Virus record (IMG/VR): IMGVR_UViG_3300036893_000013
Coordinates: 32,001 to 96,000 of that record
From: a virus
Direction: 5' to 3' (one strand)
DNA: 64,000 nucleotides
This document shows positions 3,860 through 54,444 of the stretch, piece by piece. Numbering within the stretch: the stretch's first letter is position 1; the number at the start of each line of letters is the position of its first letter. The translations under genes and the position numbers were made by a program. The notes under the pieces were generated by a model that made no database searches, had not been told where the DNA came from, and saw only the letters and a list, made by a program, of their open reading frames with translations.

Positions 3860-3870
3860 GGTGGGTTATT
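3842..3870 (-). terminator. Intrinsic terminator at the convergence point, possibly bidirectional
   Basis: AACCCACC-GGTTAA-GGTGGGTT hairpin overlapping both stop codons, followed by a T6 run on the - strand. Confidence 0.75.
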
Positions 3871-17200: not shown

Positions 17201-19667
17201 GCGCAGTACCCCCAGAAACCCCACTGTCTACTAACTGCTGAAGATACTTGCTACCACTAACAGTAATGATAATAAACTGCCATCTGTTGTAGTAAGTATT
17301 TGCTTTCCAACCAGATACGGCATTATTAACAATTACATTAGGAGCAGTGCTCCCCCCGGCCATTCCCCAGTTCCAGACAATACCCCCATCAACAGAACTA
17401 CCTCTGTTAATCCATAATGCAGACCCATCTATGGTAGTTGTACCTTCTGTTAATGGCCACTGAACAGCATTGTTTGCGGTATAACTAGATATCGGATTAC
17501 CCCCAGAATTAACTGTTGGAATCTCAAGATCAGTAGTCGGAGGATAATAGCTAGAACCCAAAGCAACTATATTTACCGTACATCCTGTACCAGATATACC
17601 GGCTGTAGTAGCAACACCATTTTCAGTAGAATATCCAGTTCCTACATCTGTTATCTGGATAGTAGCAACACCACCAGTTGACCCGGTTAAACTAGCTACT
17701 CTAAACTGTGCTGTCCCAGAAGTACCAGACTGAGTGGGGAATAACCTATCACCTATTGCATATCCAGTACCGGCAGTTCCCAGTGTTCCTGCTGTAATAC
17801 CTCCCACAAGAACTCCAGTTATATTTACAGTCGCCCCGGTCCCCGTACCGTTAGTAGTGGTGCTCACACCAGAAGCTACAGTGTAAGGCAGATACCCAGC
17901 GTTGTGAACTGTAAGACCAGTTATTGTAGTTCCCGATACCGTAGAGACTGTATAAGAGGCCCCGGCCCCCGAAACTTGTGTTGGATATACTAAATCTCCT
18001 ACATTATACCCAGTCCCTCCTGACCCCAAGGAAAAAGTGGCAATCTGTCCACCACTGACAGTAAGTATATTGAAGGTTGCTAAAGTACCTGTTCCAGAAG
18101 TAGTAGTAGCTAGTCCGGATGCAGCAGTATATCCAGTAAAACTAATTCCTTGATATACCAATCCTATGGTTGCGGGAATGCCATTAATACTCTCTACTAG
18201 AAAGACAGCCCCGGAAGCTGGAGAACCTACCGGAACCACTGGATATATAGCTTCTCCGACACTATATCCGGTACCACTTGCAGCTACCGAAGCAGAAGTT
18301 AGAGGACCGCCAGCATAGGTATTAGGAACTTCTGCGCTGAACTGAGTACCAGAGCTTACTATATTTACGGCTAATCCAGTACCAGAAGTAGCAGTAGTAG
18401 GGATATTAGTAGCTGAATAATAACCTTGTCCAGCAACCTGAATAGCAATTGCAGTCGCTACTCCGGTACATAATGTTACTCCTGTAACAGCACTAATCGA
18501 TACGGTAGCAACTTGAAAATAACCCCCTGAACCGCTAGTTTCTTCCGGAAAAATAAAATCTCCGACAGCATATCCAGTTCCCCCGACTGCTACAGTTGCC
18601 CCAGTTAAAGAACCTCCTGAAGTAGTTATATTAAGGGTGCAATTGACACCAATTCCAGACGTTGTGGTAGAGACATTACTACCGTTTATATACCCTGCTC
18701 CAGCAGAAGTTCCAACAGAAGTTACTTTAACTTGCCCATTCATACTCCCAGCCGGAGTAGTTTGGGAGAGAGAAACAATTTCCCCCACAGTATAACCTTG
18801 TCCACCGAAATATAGACTGGCAGTATTTATAGGACCAACAATATTCTCTATGGTTAAGGTTACACTCGTAGACCCCAAAACTTGAGTTACTAACGAATCT
18901 CCAGAAAAATAAAGTTGAAGACCAGATTGCAGTACTTGAGAGGCAGTTGGAAGGGGATTCGAATTAACATCTGTAGCCCGCATGGTAAACACAAAGGTCG
19001 AGTTATAAATGTAGAAACTAGACAACTGCACTACCGTTCCTATTAACTGTTCTACATTACCATTAGGATCAATGATGAAGGAGTTAAGTTCATAAGGAGT
19101 AAAATTGTACGGATTCAAGACAGCGTATAAGTTGCCGTTCGCTACTGCAATTTCTTGAAGAACAGTGGAATAAGGGATTCTCGTTTGAAGGGTATTAACC
19201 CATTTCTTCTGATTAGCTCCATCCCCCCAAAATAGAACGTTCCCCACACTCTGCATATAACTCTGTCCAGAATACGGACTTTTATTCCAGATATCTATCT
19301 GACCGTTATTTGAGGCATCATATAAGGCAGATTTGGTATCCACCATAGTTTTTATTTGTTCAGTATTAGCATTGAATAATCTAAACTCATAAAAACCATT
19401 TATATTACTCCACGTGTTACTATTCCACACGGAATTCCCCGGACGGCGAACCACTGTAAGTCGTTGGCTGAGTTCCAGATTTTCTCCCCCAAGAAAGGCA
19501 TCTCCTCTAGGCCCGTAAAATTTCTCTTCCAAACGGGTAGAAGCGGCATCTCGTATAGCTGCGCGGTTGCTCCATAGCCCAGTAGTCCATCTTGCCCCCT
19601 GATAAAGAGCAGACTTCCTAGAAGGGCGGGGAGGTTGGGCACCGGCTACTTGTAGAGGATTAGGCAT
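14268..19667 (-). CDS. Tail nozzle/stabilisation protein with large inserted repeat and carbohydrate-binding-like domains
   Basis: 1799 aa; N- and C-terminal beta-propeller-like segments (VVRRPG, FWGDG, YVAIFRTDDGG, NRLFV) flank GTGYxVGD repeats and a PA14-like segment; no signal peptide. Confidence 0.65.
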   Translation of the reverse strand: MPNPLQVAGAQPPRPSRKSALYQGARWTTGLWSNRAAIRDAASTRLEEKFYGPRGDAFLGGENLELSQRLTVVRRPGNSVWNSNTWSNINGFYEFRLFNANTEQIKTMVDTKSALYDASNNGQIDIWNKSPYSGQSYMQSVGNVLFWGDGANQKKWVNTLQTRIPYSTVLQEIAVANGNLYAVLNPYNFTPYELNSFIIDPNGNVEQLIGTVVQLSSFYIYNSTFVFTMRATDVNSNPLPTASQVLQSGLQLYFSGDSLVTQVLGSTSVTLTIENIVGPINTASLYFGGQGYTVGEIVSLSQTTPAGSMNGQVKVTSVGTSAGAGYINGSNVSTTTSGIGVNCTLNITTSGGSLTGATVAVGGTGYAVGDFIFPEETSGSGGYFQVATVSISAVTGVTLCTGVATAIAIQVAGQGYYSATNIPTTATSGTGLAVNIVSSGTQFSAEVPNTYAGGPLTSASVAASGTGYSVGEAIYPVVPVGSPASGAVFLVESINGIPATIGLVYQGISFTGYTAASGLATTTSGTGTLATFNILTVSGGQIATFSLGSGGTGYNVGDLVYPTQVSGAGASYTVSTVSGTTITGLTVHNAGYLPYTVASGVSTTTNGTGTGATVNITGVLVGGITAGTLGTAGTGYAIGDRLFPTQSGTSGTAQFRVASLTGSTGGVATIQITDVGTGYSTENGVATTAGISGTGCTVNIVALGSSYYPPTTDLEIPTVNSGGNPISSYTANNAVQWPLTEGTTTIDGSALWINRGSSVDGGIVWNWGMAGGSTAPNVIVNNAVSGWKANTYYNRWQFIIITVSGSKYLQQLVDSGVSGGTAPWTTSSTIVGQITTDGTAKWKCLSNDSDTTLTWAAHTIYSSGHIIEDTPGSTNCVYQLQPYTGIMTQGSNFPVYYWQCNSQKNSDVGAAGELPNGPPGSTFNTPMSQNGTQPVSTATGSGTMSSFFLSAQGGTNAVEVGVFSYGDGTLSGTLSTLFPSAMENLSIAMLPVFIIPAPGTYTFTFGHQVAMFWGIGNGSISLNVTNITVNNNEVTVQCDRTLASLVSVGVQLTFAGLSNATFLNGETVSIDSVSGMTFTAPLNHSNYGPAADVGTADSGATLVPSAIGPMTWNNSGNPNTYNFSTGTPIKGYKIMSANYPSSGLSIASSIVQVTFPAAGVYPAEIQYGVWYHSTSGETLPTTSPALPFANNTISFYMVYSPPGSTINYNVIPAGIACTGGTSPTFPDWPSTLSALQTDSPAYPTVIEPSGNYTWWNIGPVSTFGWTADVNQTTQPFVVDQNSNEEIAYEAGISGTAEPTFSTTLYGLTADVPNLVWMNNGPIGVTPTGSLTTTQGGWSYAVALVNTLDDTVSNASLVSPATGSFFEASGVFISGGLPQVIDPQADYVAIFRTDDGGATYYLIPPPASGNGNTEYTVPLSQYLAQGFTDTTLDSGLDTLLEAPLALQNSLPPKSSINLAFQDNRLFVSVDNTVFWSTGPDTPIGNGYNGFAPNNYAEFPSLVKRMVPLNVGMLIFTVSDIYVISGNGTAQEPFTSEPLIQRVGLLSYNALTVNGSIMYFMTTDRQTVELNVHSGISQVGFPIADLLQQFDPSASYLTWHVNGSNDQCLFVADGSTGWYRLSPTAPPENISMTWSLKANIVEGCGAIQSVETTPGNIQLLIAPPPTYSGPILYRDYTNWEDNGSTYPANFILGSLVLAYPGQVAAAEFITTDCVRIQGSHPISLGVRIGEIAGPFDDLVFWTNDPAQLPPSDSLYNQRFYMSQTKQSILCRHMQIMGVFDETNSQDELFTLTIFGGFQVEL

Positions 19668-20884
19668 TAATGAATAGAACCACCTGAAATTTTTCCGTAA
19701 AGGCCACTATTAGTGGTGGCAGTGTTGATGGTATAAGCCCCATAAGAACTTACCGTTGAATCTGAAAGTGTACTTGTGCCTGCCACTACGTTAAGAGTAG
19801 TCACAGTACTATTGATAGTTATGGTATTACTTGATCCCGAAAGAGAGGTGCCGGTACTGCATCCGGTTCCCGCGCCGTTTGTTACTGGAGTTGTGCCATT
19901 CTCCGTATAACACATAATTGTAGTTCCAGAATTTGAGTTAGAACAGGTAACTGTTATGGAAGAACTTGAGACACCAGACCCGGGAGTACAGGTAGGAGCA
20001 GTTGCATTTCCACCGCTGTTCACGGTGTAACTGAAGTTATAAACCCAAAGAGGTCCGACTGTATTTCCATCAGTTCCAGCCGTAAGACCCACATAAGCTG
20101 TGTTCATGCTGCCGACGATTGACGGAATGTTAACGCTAGTCCATACATTATGAAAGCAAGTCGAAGAAGAGGTTGGAGTACACGTTCCTCCAGCAGTAAT
20201 ATCATAGAGATTTAGAGTGAAATTTGAACCATCATAAATAACTGTGGCCGAATAAGTGTCTCCAGTCGTGGTGTTAACGGTCGTGGCTGGAGAATTTAAT
20301 GGTACCGGAGAGGTACTGATCTTACTAGGAGTGTAGTCCGAGTTATACGGAGGAATACAAGGAGACTGACTAGCTTGATAAATCTGAGCACTGCTGTAAC
20401 TGAATGGAAAGGGCCACACAGCACTAGATGACAGTGTACTGATCTGATCGAGTTCTAGAGCAAAAACATTATTAGGTTCGGGAGGTACGAAAGCTTGATA
20501 AAATCCACCTTCGCATCCGGCCCCGGCAACGAAGGTCTGTCCTTGTGCTCCTCCCAGATTGTTCGTATTGTTCAGAGTGAAAGCAATATTGACACCGTTT
20601 GGTACGAAGGTAAAAGTAGAGGTAAAAGCTTGTACATTAACGGCGTAGTAATAAATCAAACTTGAAGACCCATGCCCGGCTCCGTTAGGCTGCAAAAGAA
20701 TATTACTACTTGAAACACTTGAATCTGAGTTATTGAAAAACTGGAAACCCGGATTTCCATATTGCTGTACACTACACGTTCCAGATGTCGCAGCAATCCA
20801 GTTTCCTTGTGTGCAACTGAATATTGACTGCGCCGAAACAAGGGAACTGAAGCAAATAATGCCAAGAATGAGTAGTATTTTCAT
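19667..20884 (-). CDS. Secreted legume-lectin-like protein with C-terminal Fn3-associated (chitobiase C-terminal-like) domain
   Basis: Signal peptide MKILLILGIICFSSLVSA|Q; AFTSTFTF, FALELD, ATVIYDG, AYVGLTAGT; MCYTENGTTP. Confidence 0.75.
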   Translation of the reverse strand: MKILLILGIICFSSLVSAQSIFSCTQGNWIAATSGTCSVQQYGNPGFQFFNNSDSSVSSSNILLQPNGAGHGSSSLIYYYAVNVQAFTSTFTFVPNGVNIAFTLNNTNNLGGAQGQTFVAGAGCEGGFYQAFVPPEPNNVFALELDQISTLSSSAVWPFPFSYSSAQIYQASQSPCIPPYNSDYTPSKISTSPVPLNSPATTVNTTTGDTYSATVIYDGSNFTLNLYDITAGGTCTPTSSSTCFHNVWTSVNIPSIVGSMNTAYVGLTAGTDGNTVGPLWVYNFSYTVNSGGNATAPTCTPGSGVSSSSITVTCSNSNSGTTIMCYTENGTTPVTNGAGTGCSTGTSLSGSSNTITINSTVTTLNVVAGTSTLSDSTVSSYGAYTINTATTNSGLYGKISGGSIH

Positions 20885-22309
20885 TTACTGTATTGTTGTG
20901 CCAGAATTATATACATCACCGGAGTTAAATGCACTAGCAGAGACACACCCGGGGGTTACAAGTCCGGTTGGTAAATTGGTGGAACATAGCCACTGCGGAT
21001 AGAGCGGATCATACCGACTAGTATTTGAGACTGTCTGATAGCCGTATGCTGCTGCTACAGAAGTTGGGGTAAAATTAGAAATTAGTGTAGCCATACACGC
21101 TACGGTACTCGCATACGAAGAACAAGATGGTGCTCCCGGAACTGTTGGATTACTAAACGAAACGGCTGTTCCGATGGTATTATTAGGACCATAAGCAAAT
21201 GATCCTGAAGTATAAATTATAGTATTGTTTCCACTTACTCCCGAAGCATATGTGCTGTACAAATGATCGGTCGCATTTCCGTTGCCGACAGCCATCGCGT
21301 AGATCGCATTACCACCAAGACCCGTAGCTGTCGATGTCTGGAGAAGGTTGTTCCAAGCCTGCACATTGTAAGCTGAATAAAGAAATAGTTCTCCAACATC
21401 TGTGCGATTTTGATGTGTATCCCGAAGATTACCCCAAGAGGTATTGTAAAGCATATACACATTACCTAGCGAAGAACCCACTGAATTATAAGGCACTTCA
21501 AGGCCGCTGCTGCCGTTCCCTACAGTAATATTGTTTTGTACAACGACTTGTTGAGAATATGGAGTACCACTCGACTGGGAATAATCTAATGAATCTACGA
21601 TAATTCCTTCTCCATCTGTTGAACCTCCTCCATTACAGGTGGCAGGATCATAGTTGGCATAAGAAAAATTACCCGCAATATAGATATGAGTGCCGGGACT
21701 GGTGTCTTTAGCAAGAGGTTGATAGACACTTATACCACTATAACAGGCAGTATTTCCCTGAGCAGCGTTATAAACTATATCCCCTACAATTGCAATGTAA
21801 TCTACCGAGTAGCTAGTACCGTCATTAAATGTGGAAAATCCACCTCCAATACAGCCGTTAGCTATATCGTCAACAAAGGCAACATCGTACACTTCTGAAG
21901 GTGTAGTTTGATTAGGGGAGGCCATAAAGCATCCTATGTATTGCTGAGGAGCAGAAGAACCCTGAACTTCCCACCCAGCAATCATCCAATGCGGCTTATC
22001 TACCCAGAAGTAGCCCGTAGAACCACTAATGATACAGGCATCAAAGGTGGTACATTTAAGAGTGGCAAAACAGTGGCCTGACCCAGTAACCGCGCCCCAT
22101 TCCCCTTGCCAGAAGTTCCACCCGCTATACGAAGAAGAAGCAGCGGCTGTGATTATATCACCACAATTAACGGCATGGTTTGGACTGAGCCAAGGTGTTC
22201 CGGTAGAGGTTCCGTTATTTGAGTCACTTCCCGACGGCGACAGATAGTAGTTTGTCGCAAAACAGGGAATGGCAAACAGAGATATAAATATTAGAAGATA
22301 TCTTATCAT
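20885..22309 (-). CDS. Secreted right-handed beta-helix (pectin-lyase-like) protein
   Basis: Start MIRYLLIFISLFAIPCFA|TNYYLSPSGSDSNNG...PW; TDGEGIIVD, NNITVGNG repeats; TAATG-coupled start at 22309. Confidence 0.75.
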   Translation of the reverse strand: MIRYLLIFISLFAIPCFATNYYLSPSGSDSNNGTSTGTPWLSPNHAVNCGDIITAAASSSYSGWNFWQGEWGAVTGSGHCFATLKCTTFDACIISGSTGYFWVDKPHWMIAGWEVQGSSAPQQYIGCFMASPNQTTPSEVYDVAFVDDIANGCIGGGFSTFNDGTSYSVDYIAIVGDIVYNAAQGNTACYSGISVYQPLAKDTSPGTHIYIAGNFSYANYDPATCNGGGSTDGEGIIVDSLDYSQSSGTPYSQQVVVQNNITVGNGSSGLEVPYNSVGSSLGNVYMLYNTSWGNLRDTHQNRTDVGELFLYSAYNVQAWNNLLQTSTATGLGGNAIYAMAVGNGNATDHLYSTYASGVSGNNTIIYTSGSFAYGPNNTIGTAVSFSNPTVPGAPSCSSYASTVACMATLISNFTPTSVAAAYGYQTVSNTSRYDPLYPQWLCSTNLPTGLVTPGCVSASAFNSGDVYNSGTTIQ

Positions 22310-24504
22310 TAGTTGTGCGCCATCATTCCAATCTGGTTGCCTGACCCCCACGATGCTGTTGGAATAGTGATTGTTGACGGTAGTTGCCCGTTTGTGGATG
22401 TTTGACTTACAGGCTGACTGGCATTATATGGGGTGAAACCTTTCCACTCTTCGTCAAGATTAAGAACAGTGGCATTTCCGGTTACCGCCATATAATAATA
22501 CTGACCGGCTGCTGGAGCAGTTAAAGTTACAGGGGAAGATTGGGTAATTGCCTGATCCCATTGACCAGTATGAGTTATGGCTACACCTTGAGAACCGGAA
22601 CCAATATCAGCAACTAGAGGGCAACTTGTTCCACCTAGAGCACAAGGACCATAAATACCTATGTCGTAGTAATGTCCAGAAGTAGTGTCATCAGTAGAAA
22701 CTTGGAAATCTAGATAAGAAATTTTCTGAGCGGTCGCTGGCCCGTTTACGATTACCCAAGTATAAACAGTTCCAGCAGTTCCTACTCCGAAACTTCCCTG
22801 ACTGGTTGAACCCATTGAAATGGGCCAGATAGAAGCAGAAGTGGAACTTCCGCTAGCACAGTTTGCCACATAAGCATCTGTTGCAATATCAGTGTTACTT
22901 GCACAAGATTGTGTCGGAGCGGTAGGAGTTCCTGTAAGAGCAGGAGAAGCAGCAAGTACAACGTTGCCAGTACCAGTACTTGATACATACCCAATTGCCG
23001 ACCATCCGCTAGATGGAGTACCTGCGGTCATGAACTGGGTTCCGGAAGGAGCAGTTGTACTCGGTTGCCATCCGTAAGCAGTAGCAGAAGTCGAGGAGAA
23101 TCCACCAATAGCGAAGTCGTGTGTAGGGATAGTTTGATTTGTAGTGTTACCACCTAAATACATCATACCGGCATCTCCAGAAGGGGGAGCAGAACCAATT
23201 GGTCCAGCGGAAGCTGTAATACCTCCGCTACCGGCGTATGTTAAGGTATTAGCAGTTGTTGCCCCATCATCGAGGTTAGAATCCCCACTAACCGTGCTAC
23301 CAGTTGACGAATACCATGTAATATGACCAGCATTTCCACTACTAACCGTGCCCCCGCCTCCCACAAAAGTACATGTGGATATTGCACTAGAAGGAGTTCC
23401 GCAGCTTAAAAGTGGTGTCGAATTGGTGGGTCCAGTAGCTGGTAGCTGGAGAGCATAAGCTGTAAAAGAAGCTGACGAGGGTCCCATAAATCCAGTGGTA
23501 TTCGAAGTAACGGCCTGATTTGCTGTATTGCCTATAAGAGAAATATATCCAGAATGCACACCGTCTGAAGTCGCTGAAACACCAGAACTAAAAGCCGCAG
23601 AAGTACCAGTAAGTGCTCCGGTTAAAGTGCCTCCTGTAAGAGGAAGATCGAGAGTGGCACTGTTAGCCACACACGAGGCGCAAGTACCAGTTAAGTTGGT
23701 AATTACTCCGGAAGCGGGAGTTCCTAACGCAGGAGTGATAAGGGTAAGATTGGTTGCACTCAATCCACTAGGAAGAGTTGTGCTTTCGGAGGGAACTCCG
23801 CTGCCGTTAGTACTTACAACTGCATTATTTACAGGAGTAACTCCAGCCAAAGCCGAAGTAGTACCTGCGCTATATACGATTGAATTAGTAGCTAAGTTAG
23901 CAAGAGTACCGAGATTTGCTGCTGTTGCTGCGGTTGGACCCGCACTTGTTGAATCAAATTGAAATCCGGAAATAGCCGATCCACCTACTTGAGATACTGT
24001 TCCTGTTTGTGTATACCACGTAACATCGTATTGGGGTTCAGCGGTTACTGTTCCTGATCCGGAAGGAGTTTGGCAAGCTCCATCTCCTCTGAGATACGTA
24101 GAGGAACTACAAGTTCCCGACCATAACCCATACACATCCGCTGCGACTGCTATAGAAGGTACACCGGTAGTTGTAGTATTTTTTAAAATACCTGTTCCAA
24201 GGCCGGACAGAAGGGTTCCGTTAATACCTTTTACAGTAGTAGCACCCCCTGTAGAAGTACTGACAGCATCGCCAGTAAGGGCATTGAAGGTACCACTTCC
24301 ACCAAAAGCTGTCCATGTGTTTGTTGCAGAACAGTAGTATGGAGATTCAATCCCACCAGAAAGCAGGTAGAAATTAATCACAGGACTACTAACCGAGCAA
24401 GTCGCGGGGAGACTAGAACCACTACCGTAACTTACAACTCCGCTTTGTGGTCCCGTCTGCGCGAGAGCGGGGAGTGCGAAAAATAAAAATAAGAGTTTTT
24501 TCAT
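22309..24504 (-). CDS. Signal-peptide-bearing tail-fibre-like protein
   Basis: MKKLLFLFFALPALA|Q; fibre motifs LTGDAV, LPLTGGTLTG, TPALGTP, SPALTGTPTAPT...IATDAYV. Confidence 0.7.
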   Translation of the reverse strand: MKKLLFLFFALPALAQTGPQSGVVSYGSGSSLPATCSVSSPVINFYLLSGGIESPYYCSATNTWTAFGGSGTFNALTGDAVSTSTGGATTVKGINGTLLSGLGTGILKNTTTTGVPSIAVAADVYGLWSGTCSSSTYLRGDGACQTPSGSGTVTAEPQYDVTWYTQTGTVSQVGGSAISGFQFDSTSAGPTAATAANLGTLANLATNSIVYSAGTTSALAGVTPVNNAVVSTNGSGVPSESTTLPSGLSATNLTLITPALGTPASGVITNLTGTCASCVANSATLDLPLTGGTLTGALTGTSAAFSSGVSATSDGVHSGYISLIGNTANQAVTSNTTGFMGPSSASFTAYALQLPATGPTNSTPLLSCGTPSSAISTCTFVGGGGTVSSGNAGHITWYSSTGSTVSGDSNLDDGATTANTLTYAGSGGITASAGPIGSAPPSGDAGMMYLGGNTTNQTIPTHDFAIGGFSSTSATAYGWQPSTTAPSGTQFMTAGTPSSGWSAIGYVSSTGTGNVVLAASPALTGTPTAPTQSCASNTDIATDAYVANCASGSSTSASIWPISMGSTSQGSFGVGTAGTVYTWVIVNGPATAQKISYLDFQVSTDDTTSGHYYDIGIYGPCALGGTSCPLVADIGSGSQGVAITHTGQWDQAITQSSPVTLTAPAAGQYYYMAVTGNATVLNLDEEWKGFTPYNASQPVSQTSTNGQLPSTITIPTASWGSGNQIGMMAHN

Positions 24505-24507
24505 ATT

Positions 24508-25617
24508 TTAGTATCCGTAGTAATAGCCGTAATTAAAGGGACTTGCAGGACCAACAGGATAGAACGGACCTAAAACAGAATCTCCGGACATTTGCGTATC
24601 GGGGAAAATACTCCATGCCTGTTCTTCCCTCTCTCCTGCTCTTATAGCTTGCTCAATTTGTTCATGCCACATCTGATTCTGCATAGCTGCGCGGGGGGAA
24701 TTAGCATGTTGAAGGCATTTAGCAACAAATCCTTCCCGGAAAAGATAAGCTAAATCATCTGGAACTGGAGAAATAGTCTGGTCTAAATACTTGAATCTAG
24801 GTGCTCTACGTTGGTAAACAATCCAAAATAACCAAGTAAATCCGCCTTCAGCAGGCAGAGGATTTACTCTTATAGCAAAGCCATTAGGATTAGCTACTGT
24901 CCAAGTAAGAGTACCGTCAGGTACCGTAGTACCCGGGGGCGAGGCGGGAGGAAGTTCCGGAGCAGTAGAACCCGAAGTTCCAAAATTAGCACCCGTACTG
25001 TTATAGGGATTAGGTGTCGGTAAAGGAATATTAGTCCCTTGATATCCTTGAACATTAGGAGTAAGGCCCATGATAGAAGTGTCTAGGAATAGCATGTTCC
25101 CATTAGCATCTACGATTTGTTGAATAGGAGTTTGCGGAGAACCAGAAGTACCATATCCGCAGTTGTATACTGTATTAGCAGTCCAAGTACCAAAATTACA
25201 CTGGTTATTAGGTATAAAGCATACTATACTGGGATTTCCCTGATAAGGAGTAAGTCCCATGTCTCTATTAGTTTCCATAAGAAACAGTGGTTTTGGACAG
25301 AGATTGCCTGTATTAGTGTTATTATTGATATCAATTCTAAATGCTGACGTTAGCCAGCCCACGTCAGTTAGATTAGTAATATAGTCTTGCTGTAGAGAAT
25401 TAGATAAGAATAAGGGAACATAAGACGCATTCCATCTCCAATTCAAACCTTGCGATAGAATTTTTTGAAGAACATCGTTAGCGAAGGTCAGCGCTGGTTC
25501 AAAAGTATAGCCACCCGCAGGAAGAATTGGATTACACTCAGAAAAACTTCTAGCATAATCAACTACTTCCTGTAGGGTTATAGAGCTAGGTGGAACTAGA
25601 TTTGGAAGAACAGGCAT
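24508..25617 (-). CDS. Head-tail adaptor/ring protein, paralog 1 (with inserted module)
   Basis: WRWN, QQDY, IRVNPLP, YQ..AP.F..LDQT.SP.PD; shares motifs with 35913-36647. Confidence 0.6.
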   Translation of the reverse strand: MPVLPNLVPPSSITLQEVVDYARSFSECNPILPAGGYTFEPALTFANDVLQKILSQGLNWRWNASYVPLFLSNSLQQDYITNLTDVGWLTSAFRIDINNNTNTGNLCPKPLFLMETNRDMGLTPYQGNPSIVCFIPNNQCNFGTWTANTVYNCGYGTSGSPQTPIQQIVDANGNMLFLDTSIMGLTPNVQGYQGTNIPLPTPNPYNSTGANFGTSGSTAPELPPASPPGTTVPDGTLTWTVANPNGFAIRVNPLPAEGGFTWLFWIVYQRRAPRFKYLDQTISPVPDDLAYLFREGFVAKCLQHANSPRAAMQNQMWHEQIEQAIRAGEREEQAWSIFPDTQMSGDSVLGPFYPVGPASPFNYGYYYGY

Positions 25618-25625
25618 GGGTTTCC

Positions 25626-29200: not shown

Positions 29201-30511
29201 CTGACTTGAAACGGTTATATTTGCCAACTGCTGAATACTTTGAGTTGCAGAAGTAATGGTTGGCGTAAGAGTCGTGAACGTCGGGGCGTTCGTGATGTTG
29301 AAAACTTGGGAGAGCGAGGACCCGGTGTAGTTAGTCGCGATGATGACCAGTGTGTTTGAAGAAGTTTGTTGATACGCTGAAACTGTAACTCCGCTTTGCG
29401 GGTTGTGCGTAGCACTAATACGGTAGTAGCCGGGTCGAACGAATTTGCTGTACTGTGCTAATACGTAAGCCCTATCTGCAACCGCATATCCGCTTGCAGC
29501 ATTGGCTATAAGCGAGCCGTTGCTTGTTGTTCCTGCCCCTCCAGCCTGATTGAAGTCGATTAGCTGCCAGAAAAGCCACATGTTAGCTCCATCTTGCATC
29601 CGCTGATCGATGATCGCACCCCAACACAAACCGTCTGAAATCGTGGCGGTGAAGCTTGAATACGAACCGCACGCCGGACCATAGCTGGGACCTTGTGATG
29701 CTTCTGTTTCCCACCATTTCTTTCCGCTTGCCCAACCCGCAGGATAAGTGGCAGGACTTACTGGAGGTACTCCACCAGAAAGAAAAGCATCGTAATCGTG
29801 CCAATCTGCGACTCCAAGATAAGTCGTGCAGGAGGGGTCTGTACCGCAAGTTCCACCACTCGATGATACCGCACTGTACTGGTAAGAAGTGGGCATGAGG
29901 ATTAGTGCCGGGATGCTTTGGGAAGCGAAGGTCGGTCCTAGATTAGTTTTGATAAAAGTATCGATGTTTCCCGAAGACCATAAGGCACTGTCATACGTCT
30001 CGCATTCTTCAGGCTCGTTTTGGACTCCCATTCCGTATAACTGAATACCATAGTAGGTCGAGAGGCTTTTGTAGAAGTTTGCGCCCCAGATTGCGTAGTC
30101 GCCGTAATGTCCAGATGCAAGTGCTCCTGAACCGGGATTACATATTGTGCTGTTATTGGTGGTATATATGGCGGGCGGGGACCAAGGATGAGAGATAATT
30201 CTCACGTTTTGAGATGCAGCGTACTGCAAGTCGGCAATTACAGATCCAGCGCATCCAGAATTAACAGTCGTACAACTTTGGCCGGGACCATCCTGATGGC
30301 CATTAGTCTGCCCTATCCGCAAAACTGACAAACCGAGTTGCCCTGTTCCATTTCCGAAGAAAAATTGCTGGTGTGCATTAGACATGGAAGTAGTCCAGCC
30401 TTCGTTCGAACCACCGAAGCCATCGATTATCTGGGCTGGGGCAGTCCAGTTGATGGTGGCCTGTCCAGCAAGCGAGAGCGGAAAGAGCAGCAGAAGTATA
30501 AGTCTTTTCAT
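26294..30511 (-). CDS. Secreted multidomain glycosidase: GH30 (glucuronoxylanase-like) + InlB-B-like repeats + beta-helix-like domain + Fn3-associated domain
   Basis: Start MKRLILLLLFPLSLAG|Q at 30511; QIIDGFGGS, LGLSVLRI, PWSPPA, QNEPE (acid/base), WWETE (nucleophile), QYSKFVRPG; PGYAFSGWSG...FTANF repeats. Confidence 0.85.
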   Translation of the reverse strand: MKRLILLLLFPLSLAGQATINWTAPAQIIDGFGGSNEGWTTSMSNAHQQFFFGNGTGQLGLSVLRIGQTNGHQDGPGQSCTTVNSGCAGSVIADLQYAASQNVRIISHPWSPPAIYTTNNSTICNPGSGALASGHYGDYAIWGANFYKSLSTYYGIQLYGMGVQNEPEECETYDSALWSSGNIDTFIKTNLGPTFASQSIPALILMPTSYQYSAVSSSGGTCGTDPSCTTYLGVADWHDYDAFLSGGVPPVSPATYPAGWASGKKWWETEASQGPSYGPACGSYSSFTATISDGLCWGAIIDQRMQDGANMWLFWQLIDFNQAGGAGTTSNGSLIANAASGYAVADRAYVLAQYSKFVRPGYYRISATHNPQSGVTVSAYQQTSSNTLVIIATNYTGSSLSQVFNITNAPTFTTLTPTITSATQSIQQLANITVSSQSFTYTIPAQSITTFVSTGSTPTNYSLVVTATNGTISGANCATGTYASGTSIGPCTFTPSAGYTFSSGWSGTGSCSGVSGTGTASCTLSSNATLSASGTSTGCGNYTAASCNQSDVNSAINGPAHIACNGDIISIPAGTCTWTTDVVVTASIDITGPNAGANTGTSTFGSGSNTLTIKSNNPSGPIWFLQPTYNGTSNVTKLESMNLDPINGSTSLGGVVFIEGTSTSAGFPQVRVDNIGFGISTQWTESGNGDNTVDMIRVDDAIGVVDHSTLPTGSLSNHLYTAQMSSYLGVGQFGDNSWAQPDSFGGLTNWFAENNQVNLNGSTFNDCTEAGITVNQSGGCRVVNRFNHSIGYNAFAYTAVHGTDSTGRPRSGRHTETYGNVLTCTLNCGDAVVSFRGGTGIAFGNTGISSGGAYFNQIMDGTTYRIALANPFFGTCGGLTSIDPGDTVDNVTYVSSTLTGGGTTTITDTSKSWTTNQWAPYGAPYFFYDTTQSFGAQITSNTNNTLTMYAEINNGASYNPGDTYKIIRATVCEDQWGRGQGAYISGAAVPTPTAPMNEVLDPAYEWDDTITPASFLGQQFGTNYAGQTIQNRDFYTDDWKAGGLSGPTAQTSTTVPFNGSTTCNAGSGNYTCGVGFGALANRPSSCTTGVGYWATDQGNWNSSGNGFGQGELFKCTSTNTWTIAYIPAQYPHPLIGGSTLVSLTVSTSGSGTGTITGTNSLTGSYTSGTTIGPLTATATGGSTFAGWTVSGNAACSGTTNPCPSFVLTTATTVTATFTGGTSTCGNPYQNPPNYSGTYSTPPVSVSWTSPTSGCSMFMTLDGSAPTCSSPAYAAQSFSTTTTMRVIACQAGYTSSAVEGGTWVITSGVSLTTIASNGYITGTNCATASYVSGTLIGPCTPVANPGYAFSGWSGASGSAVCVGTINPCPQFSLNQASTFTANFSSVPLPPPIGLSGNLIAKQVQLK

Positions 30512-32541
30512 TATTGTAAAGCCACACTCACGTTGATGAAATTTTCCGTGGTCCCAGTCGTCCATGTTGGGGTATAGAGTCCCGCTGATGCCTGCGTATA
30601 ATGACCTCCCGCTTGGGTGGCTCCTGCCGAATTGGTTGCGTTTATATCGAACGAAAAAGGAGATGGAGCACTAAGAGCTACCCCAGCCCCTATTCCAATG
30701 AACGTGAGGACTAGAGAATTTGCTGCGGTAGTAGTAAGGGAAGAACCTGTACAACTGGACGAGCAGGAGGCCGTGCCGTAACTGGACAGCACGATCCCTG
30801 TTGTCGTGGCATTTGATATCTGTTCTAAGACTCCACCCATCCCAGCATAAGAAGTTGAGGTTCCTGATACTGTGACCGTACAAGAACCGGTGACATTTGC
30901 AACCCCTGTCCAGATTGACTGGCCCGAGGACCCGGTGGTTGGTGAACCCTGTGCAGTCCAAGTGGGTACACAACCTGAAGGCGTGTTCCATGCTGTAACG
31001 TTAATTCCAAGACCCCAAAGTACCAGCGTATTTCCAGTCGTGATTGATAATGTGACCGTGCTAGACGGATTTACACTGTAGGCTCCTACCACACCAGCAG
31101 CAGATACAAAAGTCGGATTACCGCCCCCTCCACCTGATCCTCCACCAAGCACAATCCAAGTTCCGGAAGACCCATTACAAGCAACGAAAGCAAAATTTGA
31201 TCCGCCACTAACATAAGTAGCACCAGAAATAGCGGATGTTGAATCTGTAACTGTTGCGGTGGGCCAAGGTTGAGACATGCTACTGCTACAAGTAGGAATA
31301 GGATTTGATGAGGCATTGCCAGCGGTGTATGATATGACACCGGGACCTGTACCAGCTATAACTACAGGAACATGGGCAGTCAGATCACCACTGTTGGTAA
31401 TATTGTAATCGAAGGGTAGATATGAAGTGGCTGTTGTAGCTGTAGCCGCCATAACTCCATACCCGGCAATTTGGCCGGTAATAGAACCTGCGGGAGTACA
31501 CCACGTACCGTTACCACACCAGACAGTTGAACCAGAGGCTCCGGTTCCCCCATTAAAATTAGCTATTTGTAGATTTCCTGTAACTCCACCAGCACCCGTC
31601 CCAGCTAGGTTAATTGCGGGAATAACCGAGGAGTTCAACAATCCACTTGAAAGCTGTGGAATGTCTGAGCCTGAATTACCGACAGTATAACTTGTTCCCC
31701 ACCCAGAACCAGTTGAGTTTGCAAGTCCGGCCCCGGGGTAGGTTGAAGAGGCGCAAGAAGAACAAGAAATACTAATACCTAAAGCAGTGGTGGTAATAGA
31801 AAGGGGAGAGTTGGCAGTAATATTTGTGCCTATATAGCTACCCAGATCATATAGTTGAGGAGCTATTAGACTTCCGGTAGGTTCTTCTCCTAGAAAATAA
31901 GCATGTCCAGTAGTGGTCTGGCCCGATACATAGGATGTAGTGTTAGCGCTGGACTGATAAGGAATAGAGCCTAAACTACCCCCAGCTAGTCCTCCGGCAT
32001 ATCCAGTGGTATTAGCACCATTGTTAGGGATATCTCCTGAAACTAAAGCTCCATAATTAGGAACACCGGCAGACCCAGTATGATTTCCCCATATATAATG
32101 AGCAGAAGTACTACCTAAAGAGAGGGTAACTCCTCCGACAGAATCATTATTAGTGTAAAAACTTCCATCGCCGGAAACCGAACTAACTCCGGAACCAGAA
32201 CCCCCTCCAGTATTACCAATCTGAACAATGGTATTGTTGCATTGACTATATGAAGAACAAACTTTCTCAACCACTCTTGTTCCGGTCTGAACGTAGTAAC
32301 TATATACTCCGAATGCATTAGCAGGAAAAGGTTGAGTTAAAGGAGCGGTAAGTGCCTGATCAGAATAAACTGTTTGCGGTGTAGAACATTGTGCCAGCGA
32401 ATTATATGTACAAACTGATATCTGAGCATTTGGGATAATAGTAGCATAGTTACCGCCAGATTTGGTTATAGCAGTATTCCATCTCTGGGCAGACTGGCCT
32501 AGAAGCATGGTAGGAAATAATAGCAGCAATAAGTATTTCAT
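30511..32541 (-). CDS. Signal-peptide-bearing tail fibre/spike-like protein A
   Basis: MKYLLLLLFPTMLLG|Q; tailspike-like particle-binding domain VYSDQALTAPLTQPFPANAFGVYSYYV; G/S/T-rich shaft motifs. Confidence 0.7.
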   Translation of the reverse strand: MKYLLLLLFPTMLLGQSAQRWNTAITKSGGNYATIIPNAQISVCTYNSLAQCSTPQTVYSDQALTAPLTQPFPANAFGVYSYYVQTGTRVVEKVCSSYSQCNNTIVQIGNTGGGSGSGVSSVSGDGSFYTNNDSVGGVTLSLGSTSAHYIWGNHTGSAGVPNYGALVSGDIPNNGANTTGYAGGLAGGSLGSIPYQSSANTTSYVSGQTTTGHAYFLGEEPTGSLIAPQLYDLGSYIGTNITANSPLSITTTALGISISCSSCASSTYPGAGLANSTGSGWGTSYTVGNSGSDIPQLSSGLLNSSVIPAINLAGTGAGGVTGNLQIANFNGGTGASGSTVWCGNGTWCTPAGSITGQIAGYGVMAATATTATSYLPFDYNITNSGDLTAHVPVVIAGTGPGVISYTAGNASSNPIPTCSSSMSQPWPTATVTDSTSAISGATYVSGGSNFAFVACNGSSGTWIVLGGGSGGGGGNPTFVSAAGVVGAYSVNPSSTVTLSITTGNTLVLWGLGINVTAWNTPSGCVPTWTAQGSPTTGSSGQSIWTGVANVTGSCTVTVSGTSTSYAGMGGVLEQISNATTTGIVLSSYGTASCSSSCTGSSLTTTAANSLVLTFIGIGAGVALSAPSPFSFDINATNSAGATQAGGHYTQASAGLYTPTWTTGTTENFINVSVALQ

Positions 32542-34346
32542 TAGTTTCCTAGATACTCCAGCTTATAGTGAACATCGTAACTTATGGTTCCGCTGGCCGT
32601 TACTAACGGAGTAATAGTAGTATTTACGGCTGCGTAGAAGACGGCACTGTACTGGTCCCACGCAGGAGCACTGGACCAGATATCGTTCCAAGTAAAGGTG
32701 TTGCCCGAAGTATGGGCATTTTGATAAGTAACTGTTAAAGTAGTATGGGGCGAACTAGTTTCACTAACCGCATTTACATAATATGTAAACCGATACATAC
32801 CTGCTACGGGGGTGGCGTAGCCGGAGGGAGCATAAGTAGTTGTCTGAGCGGTAGCAGATAAAGATTGCACTATAGAAGAACTTGTGTATTGACTTATTGG
32901 AAAACCAACATAACTGCTGCCGTTCCAATAACATAGATTTATTTGATTTGAGAAGGTTCCACCACCAACACTGCAATCAGTTGGAGTTTGACCGTCTGAT
33001 ACGAAACTTACCGATTGGTAAGCTGATCCCGGATTTGGTAGTCCCGCTATGTTTGTAATATAATTTAGGTTCGGCCAGTTAGGACTTATACCTAATGTAT
33101 TTAGTGTAGAATTGTAATATAATGGGGGTTGAACTAGTAAATTTGAACTGCTTGGGGGAGCAGTTCCTGTATAATGAACTTCAAGACCCATTAGGGGAAT
33201 ATATATACTGCCCTGTCCATTACAGCAGCGGGAGGCATTCATTTGAATAGCTGAATAGTTTGTAGGTAGGGCACTAAAAGCAACAGAAACTTGCCCCAAC
33301 GGATAGTCTAGAGCAGGCTGTGAAGCTCCATTAACTCCTTGAAGCATAGAAGCTCCACCGGGGATGGTTCCGCCACCAGCACTATTTACCCACATACCCT
33401 CGAATTCGGAGTTTGCCATGCTAGAGGCTGATATCATAAAAGCATATACAGCCGTTATGTTAGATTGAGTAACATAAGAAGGTAATGTAAAATTCGATAC
33501 CGTAATACCAGAACTCCCTGTACCGTCTACAAGTCCTCCAAAATATTGTCCAGCAGCATTCTGATAGCAAATAGGATTCGCACCTATACCAGTGTTGGTA
33601 ATTGTACAACTTGTTCCAAATACTAGCACGTACTGGCCTGTACCTTGTGGTACATATTGGGTAGCTAAGTTGGAAGCTGCTACATATGCACTTAAATCTC
33701 CTCCACTATCGCTTTGGAAAGTTACAGCTACATTTCCTGTTGGAGGGGTTGGGGTAGTATCATTAAAGTTCAGCAGGACTTGATCTGTAAGATTGGTTCC
33801 ATTATGCTGTAAAACAAGTTGTTTAGCGCACCCGGAAGTAGTAGCTCCTCCTAAAGAATCTATACAGAGAAGAGAACCAGAAGAACCTATAGTCCCAGAT
33901 GAGAGTAGTTTACTGTCAGTTCCTTGAACACTATAGCTACTTCCCCAAGCTGTACCTGTAGAAACGGGAACTCCCGCTGGGGGATAGACCATACTTCCAT
34001 TTCCGGTATTGCCTATATAAACATCGTAAAAACTACATTGATTATATGGCGCACATACTTGCTCAACTACATGAGTTCCGCCATCGACATAATAGCTATA
34101 TACCCCTACTCCATTTGCAGTAAGAGGTTGAGTAATTCCTTGGGTCAAAGCCGGGTCAGAATATATAGAAATTTGACTTATACAATTAAGAGAAGAGTTC
34201 CATTCACAAACTGTAATTTCTGCGTTGGGAATAACAGTAGAAAAATTACTGCCTGAAGCAGGTACCGTTGCTGTACTCCATCTCTGGGCAGACTGACAAA
34301 TTCCGGAAAGTGGAAAAAGTAGAAACAACAGCAAAAGCTTATTCAT
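32541..34346 (-). CDS. Signal-peptide-bearing tail fibre/spike-like protein B
   Basis: MNKLLLLFLLFPLSGIC|Q; same N-terminal domain as 30511-32541 (IYSDPALTQGITQPLTANGVGVYSYYV), different C-terminus. Confidence 0.7.
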   Translation of the reverse strand: MNKLLLLFLLFPLSGICQSAQRWSTATVPASGSNFSTVIPNAEITVCEWNSSLNCISQISIYSDPALTQGITQPLTANGVGVYSYYVDGGTHVVEQVCAPYNQCSFYDVYIGNTGNGSMVYPPAGVPVSTGTAWGSSYSVQGTDSKLLSSGTIGSSGSLLCIDSLGGATTSGCAKQLVLQHNGTNLTDQVLLNFNDTTPTPPTGNVAVTFQSDSGGDLSAYVAASNLATQYVPQGTGQYVLVFGTSCTITNTGIGANPICYQNAAGQYFGGLVDGTGSSGITVSNFTLPSYVTQSNITAVYAFMISASSMANSEFEGMWVNSAGGGTIPGGASMLQGVNGASQPALDYPLGQVSVAFSALPTNYSAIQMNASRCCNGQGSIYIPLMGLEVHYTGTAPPSSSNLLVQPPLYYNSTLNTLGISPNWPNLNYITNIAGLPNPGSAYQSVSFVSDGQTPTDCSVGGGTFSNQINLCYWNGSSYVGFPISQYTSSSIVQSLSATAQTTTYAPSGYATPVAGMYRFTYYVNAVSETSSPHTTLTVTYQNAHTSGNTFTWNDIWSSAPAWDQYSAVFYAAVNTTITPLVTASGTISYDVHYKLEYLGN

Positions 34347-34638
34347 TCTTTTTACCCTTAAGGATGTTTAATATATCAGTAATACTGCCCGATGCCCTGT
34401 TAACTCCATAAGGAGCAGTAAAGAAAAGAACCAGCGCAGAAATTATTAAAGGAATTGCCGCTAACCATGAGTTGAGTATAACCACATCCGTGATTTTTAT
34501 TATGTGATCAAATACTTCTATAAGGATATAAGATGAAACTATAGCAAGAATTGTACTTAGGACACGACTACTCGATCCATTTCCGTTATCTGAATACACA
34601 GATTGGAAAAAAGCACAGAATTTACTTAGAAAGTTCAT
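34339..34638 (-). CDS. Holin-like two-TM membrane protein
   Basis: SSSRV followed by two hydrophobic helices, basic C-terminus. Confidence 0.55.
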   Translation of the reverse strand: MNFLSKFCAFFQSVYSDNGNGSSSRVLSTILAIVSSYILIEVFDHIIKITDVVILNSWLAAIPLIISALVLFFTAPYGVNRASGSITDILNILKGKKNE

Positions 34639-34646
34639 AAATTTCC

Positions 34647-35912
34647 TTACGGTAGCGTGACTGTTTGCGCGGGAATGGTAACTGTAATGGGACTTCCGCT
34701 CGTCTGAATTGTCAGTGTTTGGGCTGGAATACTTAAACTGGCGGGTAGGGTTACTGGAATGTTGATCGTGTAGGACACTATCGAGGTTGATGATTCGGTG
34801 TCGCCGGGTGCCGTTGCATAAGCTGCGATGCTTTCGTTCTGACCTACTGTAAGCGGCTTGGTATAGATCGTCTCTGCTGCGCCGTTGACACTGTAATAGA
34901 TGGTTGCGCCGGGAGTTGTGTCCGAAATAGTGACTGTTTGTGCCAAAGTGTAAGTGCCCGGTCCCGGTAAAAAAGTCGGTGTATCAACCGTTGGTGCAGG
35001 GGCTGCAACAGAACCCGTTGTATAACTGAATTGACGGATGACAAGAGGGGTAACGGCTCCGTAAGGAGTATCCGAAGTGCCTGCTGTTAATCCGGCATAA
35101 GCTGTACTTCCACCTACCAACGAAGGAATGTTTACGTTGGACCAAGTGTACGTAAAACATCCAGACCCGGGGCACGATCCACCAGCACTTACATCGTAGA
35201 GATTAAGCGTTACATTTGAGCCGTCGTAGCTAATAGTTGCTGAATAGGTGTCCCCTGTACTTGTATCACTTGAGGATACAGGAGAATTCAAAGAAACAGG
35301 AGCGGTGCTGATTTTGCTTAGAGCGTAATCAGTAGAGACTGGAGCGGGGATACACGGCGATTGATTACTTGAGTAGATTTGTGTGCTACTGTGACTAAAC
35401 ACAAAAGGATACGGAGCACTTGCTGATAGGGTGCTGGCAGAGTCTAGTTCAAGAGCAAATACATTATTTGGCTCTGGGTTAGGTGGTGTTTCCTGATATC
35501 CGAATGCCTGATAAAATCCCGCTTCGCATCCTGCTCCAGCCGTGAAGGTTCCACCCTCTGCTGAATTTGTACCCGGCTGATTATTCGTGTTATTCAGAAG
35601 AAAAGCCACGTTAGCCCCATCTGGAATAAACTCAAAGCTGGCAACGAAATTGTTGACAGGTAGGGGTTTCTGGTATATAAGTGAAGTCGATCCATGACCA
35701 GACGGCAGTCCAACCATAGTCAAAGCTGATCCAGATATACCTGAATTGTTCTGTGGTGAATTTAGATAGAAGGGAAAGTTTCCAAACCCACCTTGTACAC
35801 TAACAGCACAAACTGCTGCGGGGACTGTATTAAAGCCAGAACAATTAAACCCGGTCTGACCATACACATACACAGGAAGAGATAGTATAAAAAGTAGTAT
35901 AAAATTTTTCAT
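34647..35912 (-). CDS. Secreted legume-lectin-like protein with Fn3-associated domain (paralog of 19667-20884)
   Basis: MKNFILLFILSLPVYVYG|Q; shared AGAGCE.GFYQAF, PEPNNVFALELD, TGDTYSAT..YDGSN; TPTFLPGPGTYTLAQTVTISDTTPGATIYY. Confidence 0.78.
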   Translation of the reverse strand: MKNFILLFILSLPVYVYGQTGFNCSGFNTVPAAVCAVSVQGGFGNFPFYLNSPQNNSGISGSALTMVGLPSGHGSTSLIYQKPLPVNNFVASFEFIPDGANVAFLLNNTNNQPGTNSAEGGTFTAGAGCEAGFYQAFGYQETPPNPEPNNVFALELDSASTLSASAPYPFVFSHSSTQIYSSNQSPCIPAPVSTDYALSKISTAPVSLNSPVSSSDTSTGDTYSATISYDGSNVTLNLYDVSAGGSCPGSGCFTYTWSNVNIPSLVGGSTAYAGLTAGTSDTPYGAVTPLVIRQFSYTTGSVAAPAPTVDTPTFLPGPGTYTLAQTVTISDTTPGATIYYSVNGAAETIYTKPLTVGQNESIAAYATAPGDTESSTSIVSYTINIPVTLPASLSIPAQTLTIQTSGSPITVTIPAQTVTLP

Positions 35913-39781: not shown

Positions 39782-40021
39782 TTATTTACTTTTTGCTTCT
39801 CTTTCTCTTTTATATCTTGCGTCTTGTGAAACTTTCATTCTCGCTCTATACTCAGGGTCCTCCCAGAGTTTTATGGCTCTGTGCAAGTATCCGCGAGGAT
39901 TTGTCCTAGCAGAAGACTTATGACTAGTCCATCTGGTACTTACATCATACGTCTTTCCAACATACCATTTATCATTAAGAATATTAGTTATTATGTAGAT
40001 ATAAAAATGTTTAGATTCCAT
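39782..40021 (-). pseudogene. Internally deleted GIY-YIG homing endonuclease remnant
   Basis: YIYIITNILNDKWYVGKT...RWTSH...LHRAIK joined directly to a LWEDPEYRARM tail; only 79 aa. Confidence 0.65.

Positions 40022-54443: not shown

Positions 54444-54444
<1 letters not shown>
54046..54444 (-). CDS. SprT-like zinc metalloprotease domain protein
   Basis: N..YF.NSL, TILHEQIH (HExxH), HGKPF. Confidence 0.8.

Follow-up and report, generated by a model that had tools for sequence, protein, structure and literature searches.

Assembly of tailed phages is, in the textbook account, wholly cytoplasmic. Phage receptor-binding and depolymerase proteins are known as such, and what is new in the locus described here is their predicted routing through the general secretory (Sec) pathway. 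The locus is a block of eight genes (hereafter the cassette) in a soil phage, IMG/VR virus record IMGVR_UViG_3300036893_000013; the window, that is the whole stretch of DNA that was analysed, is 64,000 nucleotides (nt) long and corresponds to bases 32001-96000 of the 112,037-base record, and controls were counted over the open reading frames (ORFs) of the genome. In phage SU10 the gene for the adaptor, gp11, is followed by those for the long fibres gp12/gp13, the short fibre gp16 and the nozzle gp17, and the fibres dock on the adaptor and on a nozzle loop (PMC9509320). Exported proteins built like phage appendages have been described in bacteria: WceF of Pantoea stewartii has a signal peptide, a P22-type head domain needed for solubility and a tailspike-like body, and acts on exopolysaccharide (EPS) (PMC7949094; structure 6tgf), and the MAT fibres of Bdellovibrio combine a signal peptide, a conserved beta-rich N-domain of ~130 amino acids (aa), a phage-like trimeric fibre, variable tips and, in some, disulfides (PMC10769870). 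Additionally, the Sec-dependent endolysin Lys44 and the signal-arrest-release (SAR) endolysins are late phage proteins that wait outside the cytoplasm until holin action (PMC6116005), and ~5% of prophage carbohydrate-active enzymes (CAZymes) carry signal peptides (PMC13507307). Full-text searches, with most subscription journals outside their coverage, found no paper on Sec signals of tailed-phage fibres.

All eight cassette proteins begin with a cleavable-type Sec signal, as the first-pass annotation of this DNA, made from the letters alone, had proposed. The calls come from a rule-based heuristic of our own for Sec/signal peptidase I substrates, which looks for Lys/Arg in the n-region, an uncharged h-region and small residues at -3 and -1. 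The h-regions measure 10-14 residues by eye and often end in Pro or Gly, and Gln occupies the predicted +1 position in seven proteins (Thr in SP474), again as first read. None of the eight shows a lipobox (+1 is Gln or Thr) or an RR twin-arginine motif, the Cys at -1 of SP601 being unfit for a lipobox because it is preceded by Ile, and a membrane anchor is absent from all eight on reading of their sequences. The portal, the capsid, both adaptor paralogs and the putative nozzle are devoid of a signal peptide, as had been noted, and signals were called in 8/8 cassette proteins against 0/42 of the other ORFs of at least 200 aa in the genome (Fisher test, ~2e-9, calculated by hand). Two small ORFs outside the tail module also have textbook signals (Table 1); one continues with a Thr-Pro repeat, the other has 7 Cys, and neither has a Pfam match.

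The eight minus-strand ORFs exist with the starts first assigned to them (the higher coordinate of each in Table 1), and the earlier remark that most of these genes abut or overlap their neighbours holds from adaptor to nozzle: adaptor paralog 1, the nozzle gene and everything between them make up 12 ORFs, spaced at -8 to +8 nt. The ATG of SP421 abuts the stop codon of adaptor paralog 1, SP1405 starts at the ATG at 30511 with a 1-nt overlap with the upstream stop, and SP474 starts in the same way at the ATG at 22309, with no other in-frame start within 80 codons; for most cassette genes an alternative in-frame start is absent for at least 40 codons. One could suppose that nothing is exported and that the N-termini reflect wrong starts, uncleaved anchors or a shared hydrophobic docking peptide on proteins that fold in the cytoplasm. 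The signal calls are indeed rule-based only, and the database gene caller starts SP421 at codon 66 (P0157, 356 aa) and SP731 at codon 42 (P0279, 690 aa). However, true starts downstream of the signals were rejected, as they would break the tight spacing, opening gaps of 195 and 123 nt, and would cut off sequence that is conserved in homologues; gene spacing and homologue N-termini both speak for the upstream starts, which eases the doubt raised at the outset about starts beyond the hydrophobic segments. Because SP421 and SP731 are stored as shorter products that begin downstream, automatic gene calling hides their signals. Internal starts that would give signal-less isoforms were also considered and set aside, since SP676 alone offers an ATG close to its cleavage site, at codon 12. 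Moreover, the h-regions appear by eye too short for membrane anchors, and small residues at -3/-1 followed by Gln recur over hundreds of homologues whose hydrophobic cores differ. Together with the Cys parity and pairing statistics, and with the loss of paired Cys in signal-less homologues (both below), these points make a purely cytoplasmic fate very improbable.

The number of Cys in the mature chain is even in all eight proteins (Table 1), which reproduces the hand count of the first-pass annotation, and in SP405, SP474 and SP601 an odd total turns even only after removal of the signal peptide. The close pairing described there was likewise recovered, 39/52 successive pairs (read in order) lying no more than 20 residues apart, and in four proteins the Cys are more clustered than if they were placed at random (p 0.0005-0.04). 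Large putative structural proteins without a signal are poor in Cys, two of them (1794 and 609 aa) having none. In related phages, Cys numbers are even in 28/32 signal-bearing ORFs compared to 180/333 others, with a median Cys content of 1.85% in the former and 0.59% in the latter (p 6e-7). Read from the sequences, these parity and pairing statistics are without a cytoplasmic explanation. Because secretion signals and paired Cys occur together, the eight surface proteins most likely fold outside the cytoplasm, and Sec export, signal peptidase I cleavage and periplasmic disulfide formation are considered highly probable. The original idea of export for oxidative folding is thus borne out by the signals, the Gln at +1, the paired Cys, their conservation and the coupled starts, but docking of all eight proteins on the particle, one of the two fates offered with it, is not.

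SP601 and SP676 share a paralogous N-domain, which in SP601 comprises ~100 aa with two Cys pairs. An exhaustive search with the mature N-terminal 110 residues of SP676 returned 162 representative clusters, and the domain nearly always starts at residue ~17-45 of proteins ranging from 106 to 2584 aa. A signal was called in 126/148 N-domain members, the remainder being mostly fragments or signals with Pro at -1; Gln stands at +1 in 91/126 signal-bearing members, of which 113 have an even and 13 an odd number of mature Cys, and the two Cys pairs of the domain are kept or lost as pairs in 143/148 sequences. In the genuinely signal-less members P0144 and P0149, one Cys is kept and its partner is absent. 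All 7 SP601 homologues have both the signal and the Gln, and the N-domain is the sole part conserved across 14 related loci, the distal parts being variable. Beyond this family, a signal was called in 82/117 homologues of SP731 (78/82 with even Cys) and in 56/120 homologues of SP421 (54/56 with even Cys), many other SP421 homologues showing one behind an over-long start call. A survey of related phages for signals at syntenic positions had been suggested in the first-pass annotation, and it found them conserved in the N-domain, SP601, SP421 and SP731 families; being conserved across distant homologues, the signals are therefore under selection.

The model of the SP676 N-domain is a beta-sandwich with a predicted local distance difference test (pLDDT) score of 82.5, and its best fold matches are the particle-binding domains of tailspikes (Pan3, Z 9.2; Sf6, 8.4; Pam1, 8.4; P22, 8.2). 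These matches cover 83-89 residues at 12-22% identity, tailspike N-domains fill the top 6 places (13 of the top 14), and the WceF structure 6tgf is also among the matches at Z 5.2. Additionally, in the relatives G002 and G003 a signal-less protein of ~100 aa that consists of the N-domain only is encoded directly after adaptor 1 (L080, 1338-1637 (+); L082, 10760-11065 (-)), and the next gene carries the same domain behind a signal peptide. The modelled fold suggests that the N-domain is a candidate particle-binding anchor.

The same kind of signal was found in cultured phages of Tunturiibacter (Acidobacteriota). In Tunturi 2 (PP885685; L104, 5075-18017) the consecutive or nearly consecutive tail-region proteins gp12, gp13, gp14, gp16 and gp17 start with Sec-type signals, and gp13 is annotated as tail fiber, gp14 as pectin lyase and gp17 as virion structural protein. 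Gln follows the signal in all five but gp14, the four large signal-bearing proteins have 20, 10, 20 and 34 mature Cys, and the N-terminus of gp12 matches the N-domain profile with 94% probability. Tunturi 4 (PP885687; L103) carries signals on gp113 and gp114, the latter without a following Gln. The frame of its gp111 (tail fiber, annotated with a GTG start; L103, 8656-11751) is open upstream to a TTG at 8656, and from this TTG the product has 12 mature Cys and a signal closely matching that of gp113, for which reason the deposited start of gp111 looks too short. The paper describing the Tunturi phages does not mention the term "signal peptide" and reports no virion proteomics (PMC11924767).

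These phages also bear on the host. Gln at +1, which gives pyroglutamate, is known as the Q-rule of Bacteroidetes (PMC5837995), and a Bacteroidota host was considered on this ground and given up, as an acidobacterial control, the Tunturi signals and kinship leads point to Acidobacteriota. In the control, ~195 kb of an acidobacterial metagenome-assembled genome (MAG), Gln stands at +1 in 9/25 called signals; the nearest isolate is the Tunturiibacter phage Tunturi 3, the only GTDB match of the adaptor is a contig of a Ca. Sulfotelmatobacter MAG, and P0086, a member of the N-domain family, is 57% identical to the Tunturi 4 tail fiber over 530 residues. The host is probably a bacterium of the Acidobacteriota (Terriglobia-like), with some room for doubt left by the G+C content of ~44% and by the lectin domain, which was not found in 151 Acidobacteriota genomes.

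The other cassette proteins are of several kinds. Residues 15-454 of SP1405 match the PDB entries 7n6h (E 2.8e-36) and 3gtn (E 3.3e-33), and the protein matches the NCBIfam model XynC with E 9.7e-45, far below the equivalog cut-off; by these matches it is a complete glucuronoxylanase-type domain of GH30-8 (TIM barrel plus beta-sandwich) that sits right behind the signal, followed by InlB B-repeats, a central region and CHB_HEX_C (Pfam), the repeats and CHB_HEX_C lying towards the C-terminus. SP474 reaches a template modelling (TM) score of 0.90 to a 475-aa ESM Atlas cluster that is mostly bacterial, with Acidobacteriota commonest. SP421 contains CHB_HEX_C (Pfam, E 2.8e-10) and is 49% identical to SP405 over 85% of the length (E 1.7e-72; P0207); their family, of legume-lectin plus CHB_HEX_C type, has more than 390 members, some on contigs of 0.4-2.7 Mb, and a signal with Gln behind it is present in nearly all. 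PF00139 gave no match for the putative lectins of the window at E 0.01, and it is precomputed in many homologues at 43-57% identity. SP223 has a Pfam fn3 match below the cut-off (E 2.9e-4) and matches to immunoglobulin (Ig) regions of PHROG tail proteins. The nearest ESM Atlas clusters of SP731 are viral (leads only), and among its 35 signal-less homologues, with 0.63% Cys, are fibres of classical type that contain Collar, S74 or Mtd_N domains. A PHROG match is absent for 7/8 cassette proteins; no PDB sequence match was obtained for SP421, SP474, adaptor paralog 2, the nozzle or the profiles A2, A3 and A4, none of 50,697 phage records was matched by SP601 or SP731 in tblastn, and a GTDB scan with SP676 was likewise negative.

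The cassette belongs to a minus-strand late operon that includes all of its genes together with those of the terminase, portal, head protein and adaptor (Table 1). Its eight genes had been placed between adaptor paralog 2 and the nozzle gene, which is right for three of them; the other five lie between the two adaptor paralogs. Adaptor paralog 1 matches PF24175 with E 8.7e-7 (30 bits, cut-off 27) and has relatives in 48 IMG/VR loci, and the two paralogs are homologous (hhalign of A2 with A3, probability 99.8%, E 2.4e-27), paralog 2 being retained in 57 loci, whether or not these have signal-peptide genes. The 1799-aa protein is a putative nozzle, named by position and conservation: it is conserved in 42 loci, where it always follows the adaptors, neither Pfam nor the PDB yields a match to it, and the AlphaFold model of its residues 1115-1799 reaches a pLDDT of only 42.9. 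It is 500-850 residues longer than its relatives, which align to residues 1-220 and 713-1798 only, and five repeats of ~90 aa, each with GxGYxVG[DE], occupy residues ~230-710. Many of the loci with a relative of the adaptor carry large signal-peptide ORFs between the adaptor paralogs (G001 has two, G002 and G004 have five each, and G003 has one), and in L008, L010, L012, L041 and L084 adaptor 1, adaptor 2 and the nozzle follow one another with nothing between. TM99, a two-helix membrane protein encoded by the ninth ORF of the block and placed between SP421 and SP601, has no Pfam or PHROG match and is holin-like by shape only; its homologues (59% identity) adjoin signal-peptide fibres in L001 (17983-18279) and L003 (10756-11049).

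Table 1. Features of the window (positions in the window; Cys of SP proteins are those of the mature chain)
Feature	Position	Strand	Signal peptide	Cys	Description
Terminase large subunit	46317-48281	-			PHROG 38
SU10-type portal	43154-45247	-			PF23899, E 8.6e-27, above cut-off
Major head protein	40642-41631	-			same late operon
Adaptor paralog 1	35913-36647	-	none	1	244 aa; PF24175 SU10_adaptor
SP421	34647-35912	-	VYG/Q	6	putative legume-lectin-type domain, CHB_HEX_C Ig-like domain
TM99	34339-34638	-	none		99 aa; two hydrophobic helices, charged Lys-rich C-terminus
SP601	32541-34346	-	GIC/Q	12	~100-aa tailspike-like N-domain, variable fibre part
SP676	30511-32541	-	LLG/Q	14	paralogous N-domain, different distal part
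SP1405	26294-30511	-	LAG/Q	36	GH30-8 type domain, InlB B-repeats, CHB_HEX_C
SP223	25626-26297	-	VYA/Q	2	Ig-like and Fn3-like domains
Adaptor paralog 2	24508-25617	-	none		369 aa; ~110-aa insertion relative to paralog 1
SP731	22309-24504	-	ALA/Q	12	Gly/Ser/Thr-rich, fibre-type
SP474	20885-22309	-	CFA/T	12	right-handed beta-helix of Pel9A/NosD type
SP405	19667-20884	-	VSA/Q	10	paralog of SP421, putative lectin type
Putative nozzle/tail-hub	14268-19667	-	none		1799 aa; position and conservation
609-aa protein	9260-11089	-		0	no family match
1794-aa protein	3866-9250	-		0	no family match
Histidine-phosphatase-family gene	39160-39774	-			PF00300, E 1.4e-33
79-aa ORF	39782-40021	-			adjoins the histidine-phosphatase gene
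tRNA-Asn (GTT)	51559-51634	-			
tRNA-Pro (TGG)	52807-52892	-			
Small ORF	54444-54803	-	AFA/Q		Thr-Pro repeat after signal
Small ORF	54842-55273	-	LPA/Q	7	

Further features of the window stand apart from the cassette. The two Cys-free proteins downstream of the nozzle may, by position, be ejection or internal virion proteins. Nearly all relatives retain the histidine-phosphatase-family gene, which lies among the structural genes; the N-terminus of the 79-aa ORF next to it resembles, by eye only, a motif of GIY-YIG nucleases. The idea that the contig has a terminal direct repeat was rejected, as its first 100 nt recur not at the end but 615 nt ahead of it.

Taken together, the gene order and the predicted signals suggest that the block is an accessory host-surface cassette, placed in a fibre-gene slot of the SU10 type, whose products leave through Sec. 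The explanation that we tentatively prefer, with a rough probability of 0.48, is a mixed one in which the fibres with an N-domain dock on the particle at holin lesions or lysis, and the enzymes and lectins are soluble or ride on the fibres. Export of the eight proteins would come late in infection, at the time when the virion genes are expressed; the cut by signal peptidase I would expose mostly Gln, which may cyclise, and disulfide folding would take place in the periplasm. SP601 and SP676, and maybe SP731 in like manner, would encounter particles built in the cytoplasm only once holin lesions or lysis had joined the two compartments, and would attach there to the adaptor/nozzle region as additional fibres for receptor binding. 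SP1405, SP474, SP421, SP405 and SP223 would most likely bind or cut glycans in soluble form, in the periplasm or after release, or else ride on the fibres. Late docking is physically possible, as P22 tailspikes and T4 fibres add to particles in vitro. A role in the virion is suggested by the fibre slot, the tight coupling to virion genes, the anchor-like build with an N-domain, the fibre homology of SP731 and the signal-less N-domain copies in G002 and G003. The first-pass annotation had placed fibres, lectins and glycosidases alike among the tail appendages; this is plausible for SP601 and SP676, through the N-domain, and for the fibre-like SP731, and less so for SP1405, SP474, SP421 and SP405, which look like proteins of bacterial type.

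Several observations weigh against this explanation, in addition to the database starts of SP421 and SP731 given above. The anchor-like N-domain is present in two of the eight cassette proteins (SP601 and SP676) and absent from the other six, and carboxypeptidase-regulatory sandwiches match it at Z ~7, 1-2 units below the tailspikes, so that the margin of the tailspikes is modest because generic sandwiches come this close. SP1405, SP474, SP421 and SP405 resemble ordinary bacterial secreted proteins. L017 and L031, whose adaptors are 84-86% identical, are set apart by an insertion of 5.5 kb that holds three signal-peptide genes, which makes the cassette accessory, and phages with and without it show no difference in adaptor length. 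The tail module of Tunturi 3, the closest isolate (portal 36% identity), shows no such signals. Moreover, the MAT fibres are, unlike the cassette proteins, encoded by a predatory bacterium and displayed on the cell, and the literature searches found no paper showing a tailed-phage fibre that joins the particle after export.

These points feed a second explanation, in which all eight proteins are exported and none enters the virion: a late secreted set, comparable to soluble depolymerases, WceF or auxiliary metabolic genes, would remodel or degrade the EPS and envelope of the host, acting from the periplasm and, once lysis has occurred, in the surrounding matrix, by which progeny would be freed, receptors on debris destroyed or superinfection blocked, and the N-domain would be baggage kept for folding or trimer stability. 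WceF gives a precedent, as it keeps the P22-type head domain on an exported, tailspike-like bacterial enzyme without any virion (PMC7949094), and so do the prophage CAZymes with signal peptides (PMC13507307). In the cassette, a GH30-8 domain leads SP1405, which has no anchor; SP474 and the SP421/SP405 family are nearest to bacterial proteins, some of them on Mb-size contigs; and, with the cassette coming and going between near relatives, its distal parts turn over freely and no feature of the adaptor tracks its presence. Against this stands the exact SU10 fibre slot that the cassette fills, within a few nt of virion genes, and receptor-binding proteins are usually made up of an N-domain that is conserved and a distal part that is hypervariable. 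SP731-type modules are common to signal-less fibres with Collar, S74 and Mtd_N domains, and the signal-less N-domain copies of G002 and G003 come directly after the adaptor. Furthermore, neither a C-terminal domain of the type IX secretion system (T9SS) nor a PEP-CTERM signal was found on the eight with Pfam and NCBIfam, such as would carry the proteins past the periplasm before lysis. A wholly soluble set is thus judged a serious possibility but a somewhat unlikely one.

A further alternative is that the exported proteins stay on the infected cell, where they would decorate the envelope or mask receptors and so exclude superinfecting phages, on the model of Llp of T5 and Lom/Bor of lambda. 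Signal-peptide morons within tail-gene regions are a known kind of gene, and the cassette includes two lectin-type proteins (SP421 and SP405). In L080 (13303-13818), L081 (10966-11451) and L031 (15755-16222), the gene that immediately precedes adaptor paralog 2 is a small ORF of 155-171 aa; the signals of these ORFs end in a lipobox-like G-C or A-G-C, and their products may be lipoproteins, which would fit envelope decoration. However, the cassette amounts to ~4,900 residues including enzymes, far beyond known exclusion proteins, none of the eight has a membrane anchor or a lipobox, and the operon is of the lytic late type and not beside a repressor or integrase; exclusion as the main role is improbable. 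Returning to the mixed explanation, its boldest form is that tailed phages of soil bacteria possess an extracytoplasmic arm of tail assembly, widespread among them (hundreds of protein clusters and the cultured Tunturi phages), in which Sec-exported, pyroglutamate-capped and disulfide-stapled fibres and tailspikes, hardened for acidic and enzyme-rich soil, are added at holin lesions or lysis; the features read from these genomes leave this form a little short of an even chance.

The interest of the locus lies in homologues of tail fibres and tailspikes that occupy the fibre slot of a virion operon and yet have conserved secretion signals and a disulfide signature, a pattern that extends to large protein families and to cultured phages. 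If the exported proteins do join the particle, this would be a new assembly route; recombinant receptor-binding proteins and depolymerases of such phages would need oxidative folding, and host prediction would be affected. If they are soluble instead, many of the "viral carbohydrate-active enzymes" of soil would be built for extracellular life, which bears on the role of phages in soil carbon turnover. Annotation is concerned in any case, as gene callers and curators trim or ignore such N-termini (gp111 of Tunturi 4 and two genes here). Whichever way it falls, the question can be put to the test with the isolates Tunturi 2 and Tunturi 4 and the bacteria that they infect.

Compared with described systems, the locus is like SU10 (Kuravirus) in the Pfam families of its portal and adaptor and in having its appendage genes between an adaptor and a large downstream tail protein. 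Unlike SU10, its adaptor is duplicated, every appendage protein has a Sec signal and paired Cys, and no sequence similarity was seen between the cassette proteins and the SU10 fibres. SP601 and SP676 resemble the tailspikes of P22, Sf6, Pam1 and Pan3 (1lkt, 2vky, 7ukj, 7eeq, 9vyg) in their conserved N-domain followed by a variable distal part, whereas here this domain lies behind a cleavable signal and has one or two Cys pairs that would staple it. With WceF they share a signal peptide that precedes an N-domain of putative tailspike type; WceF, however, is encoded on the chromosome within an EPS cluster and exported by twin-arginine translocation (Tat), unlike the genes described here, which lie in a phage virion operon and code for disulfide-rich proteins with Sec-type signals. 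The likeness to the MAT fibres of Bdellovibrio, with signal, N-domain and variable distal part, is one of architecture. Tunturi 2 and Tunturi 4 show the same kind of signal on tail fiber, pectin lyase and virion structural proteins, and they differ from this phage in genome type, being a 63-kb podovirus and an 88-kb siphovirus respectively. Finally, Lys44 and the SAR endolysins are lysis enzymes with no role in the virion, whereas the cassette includes homologues of fibres and tailspikes.

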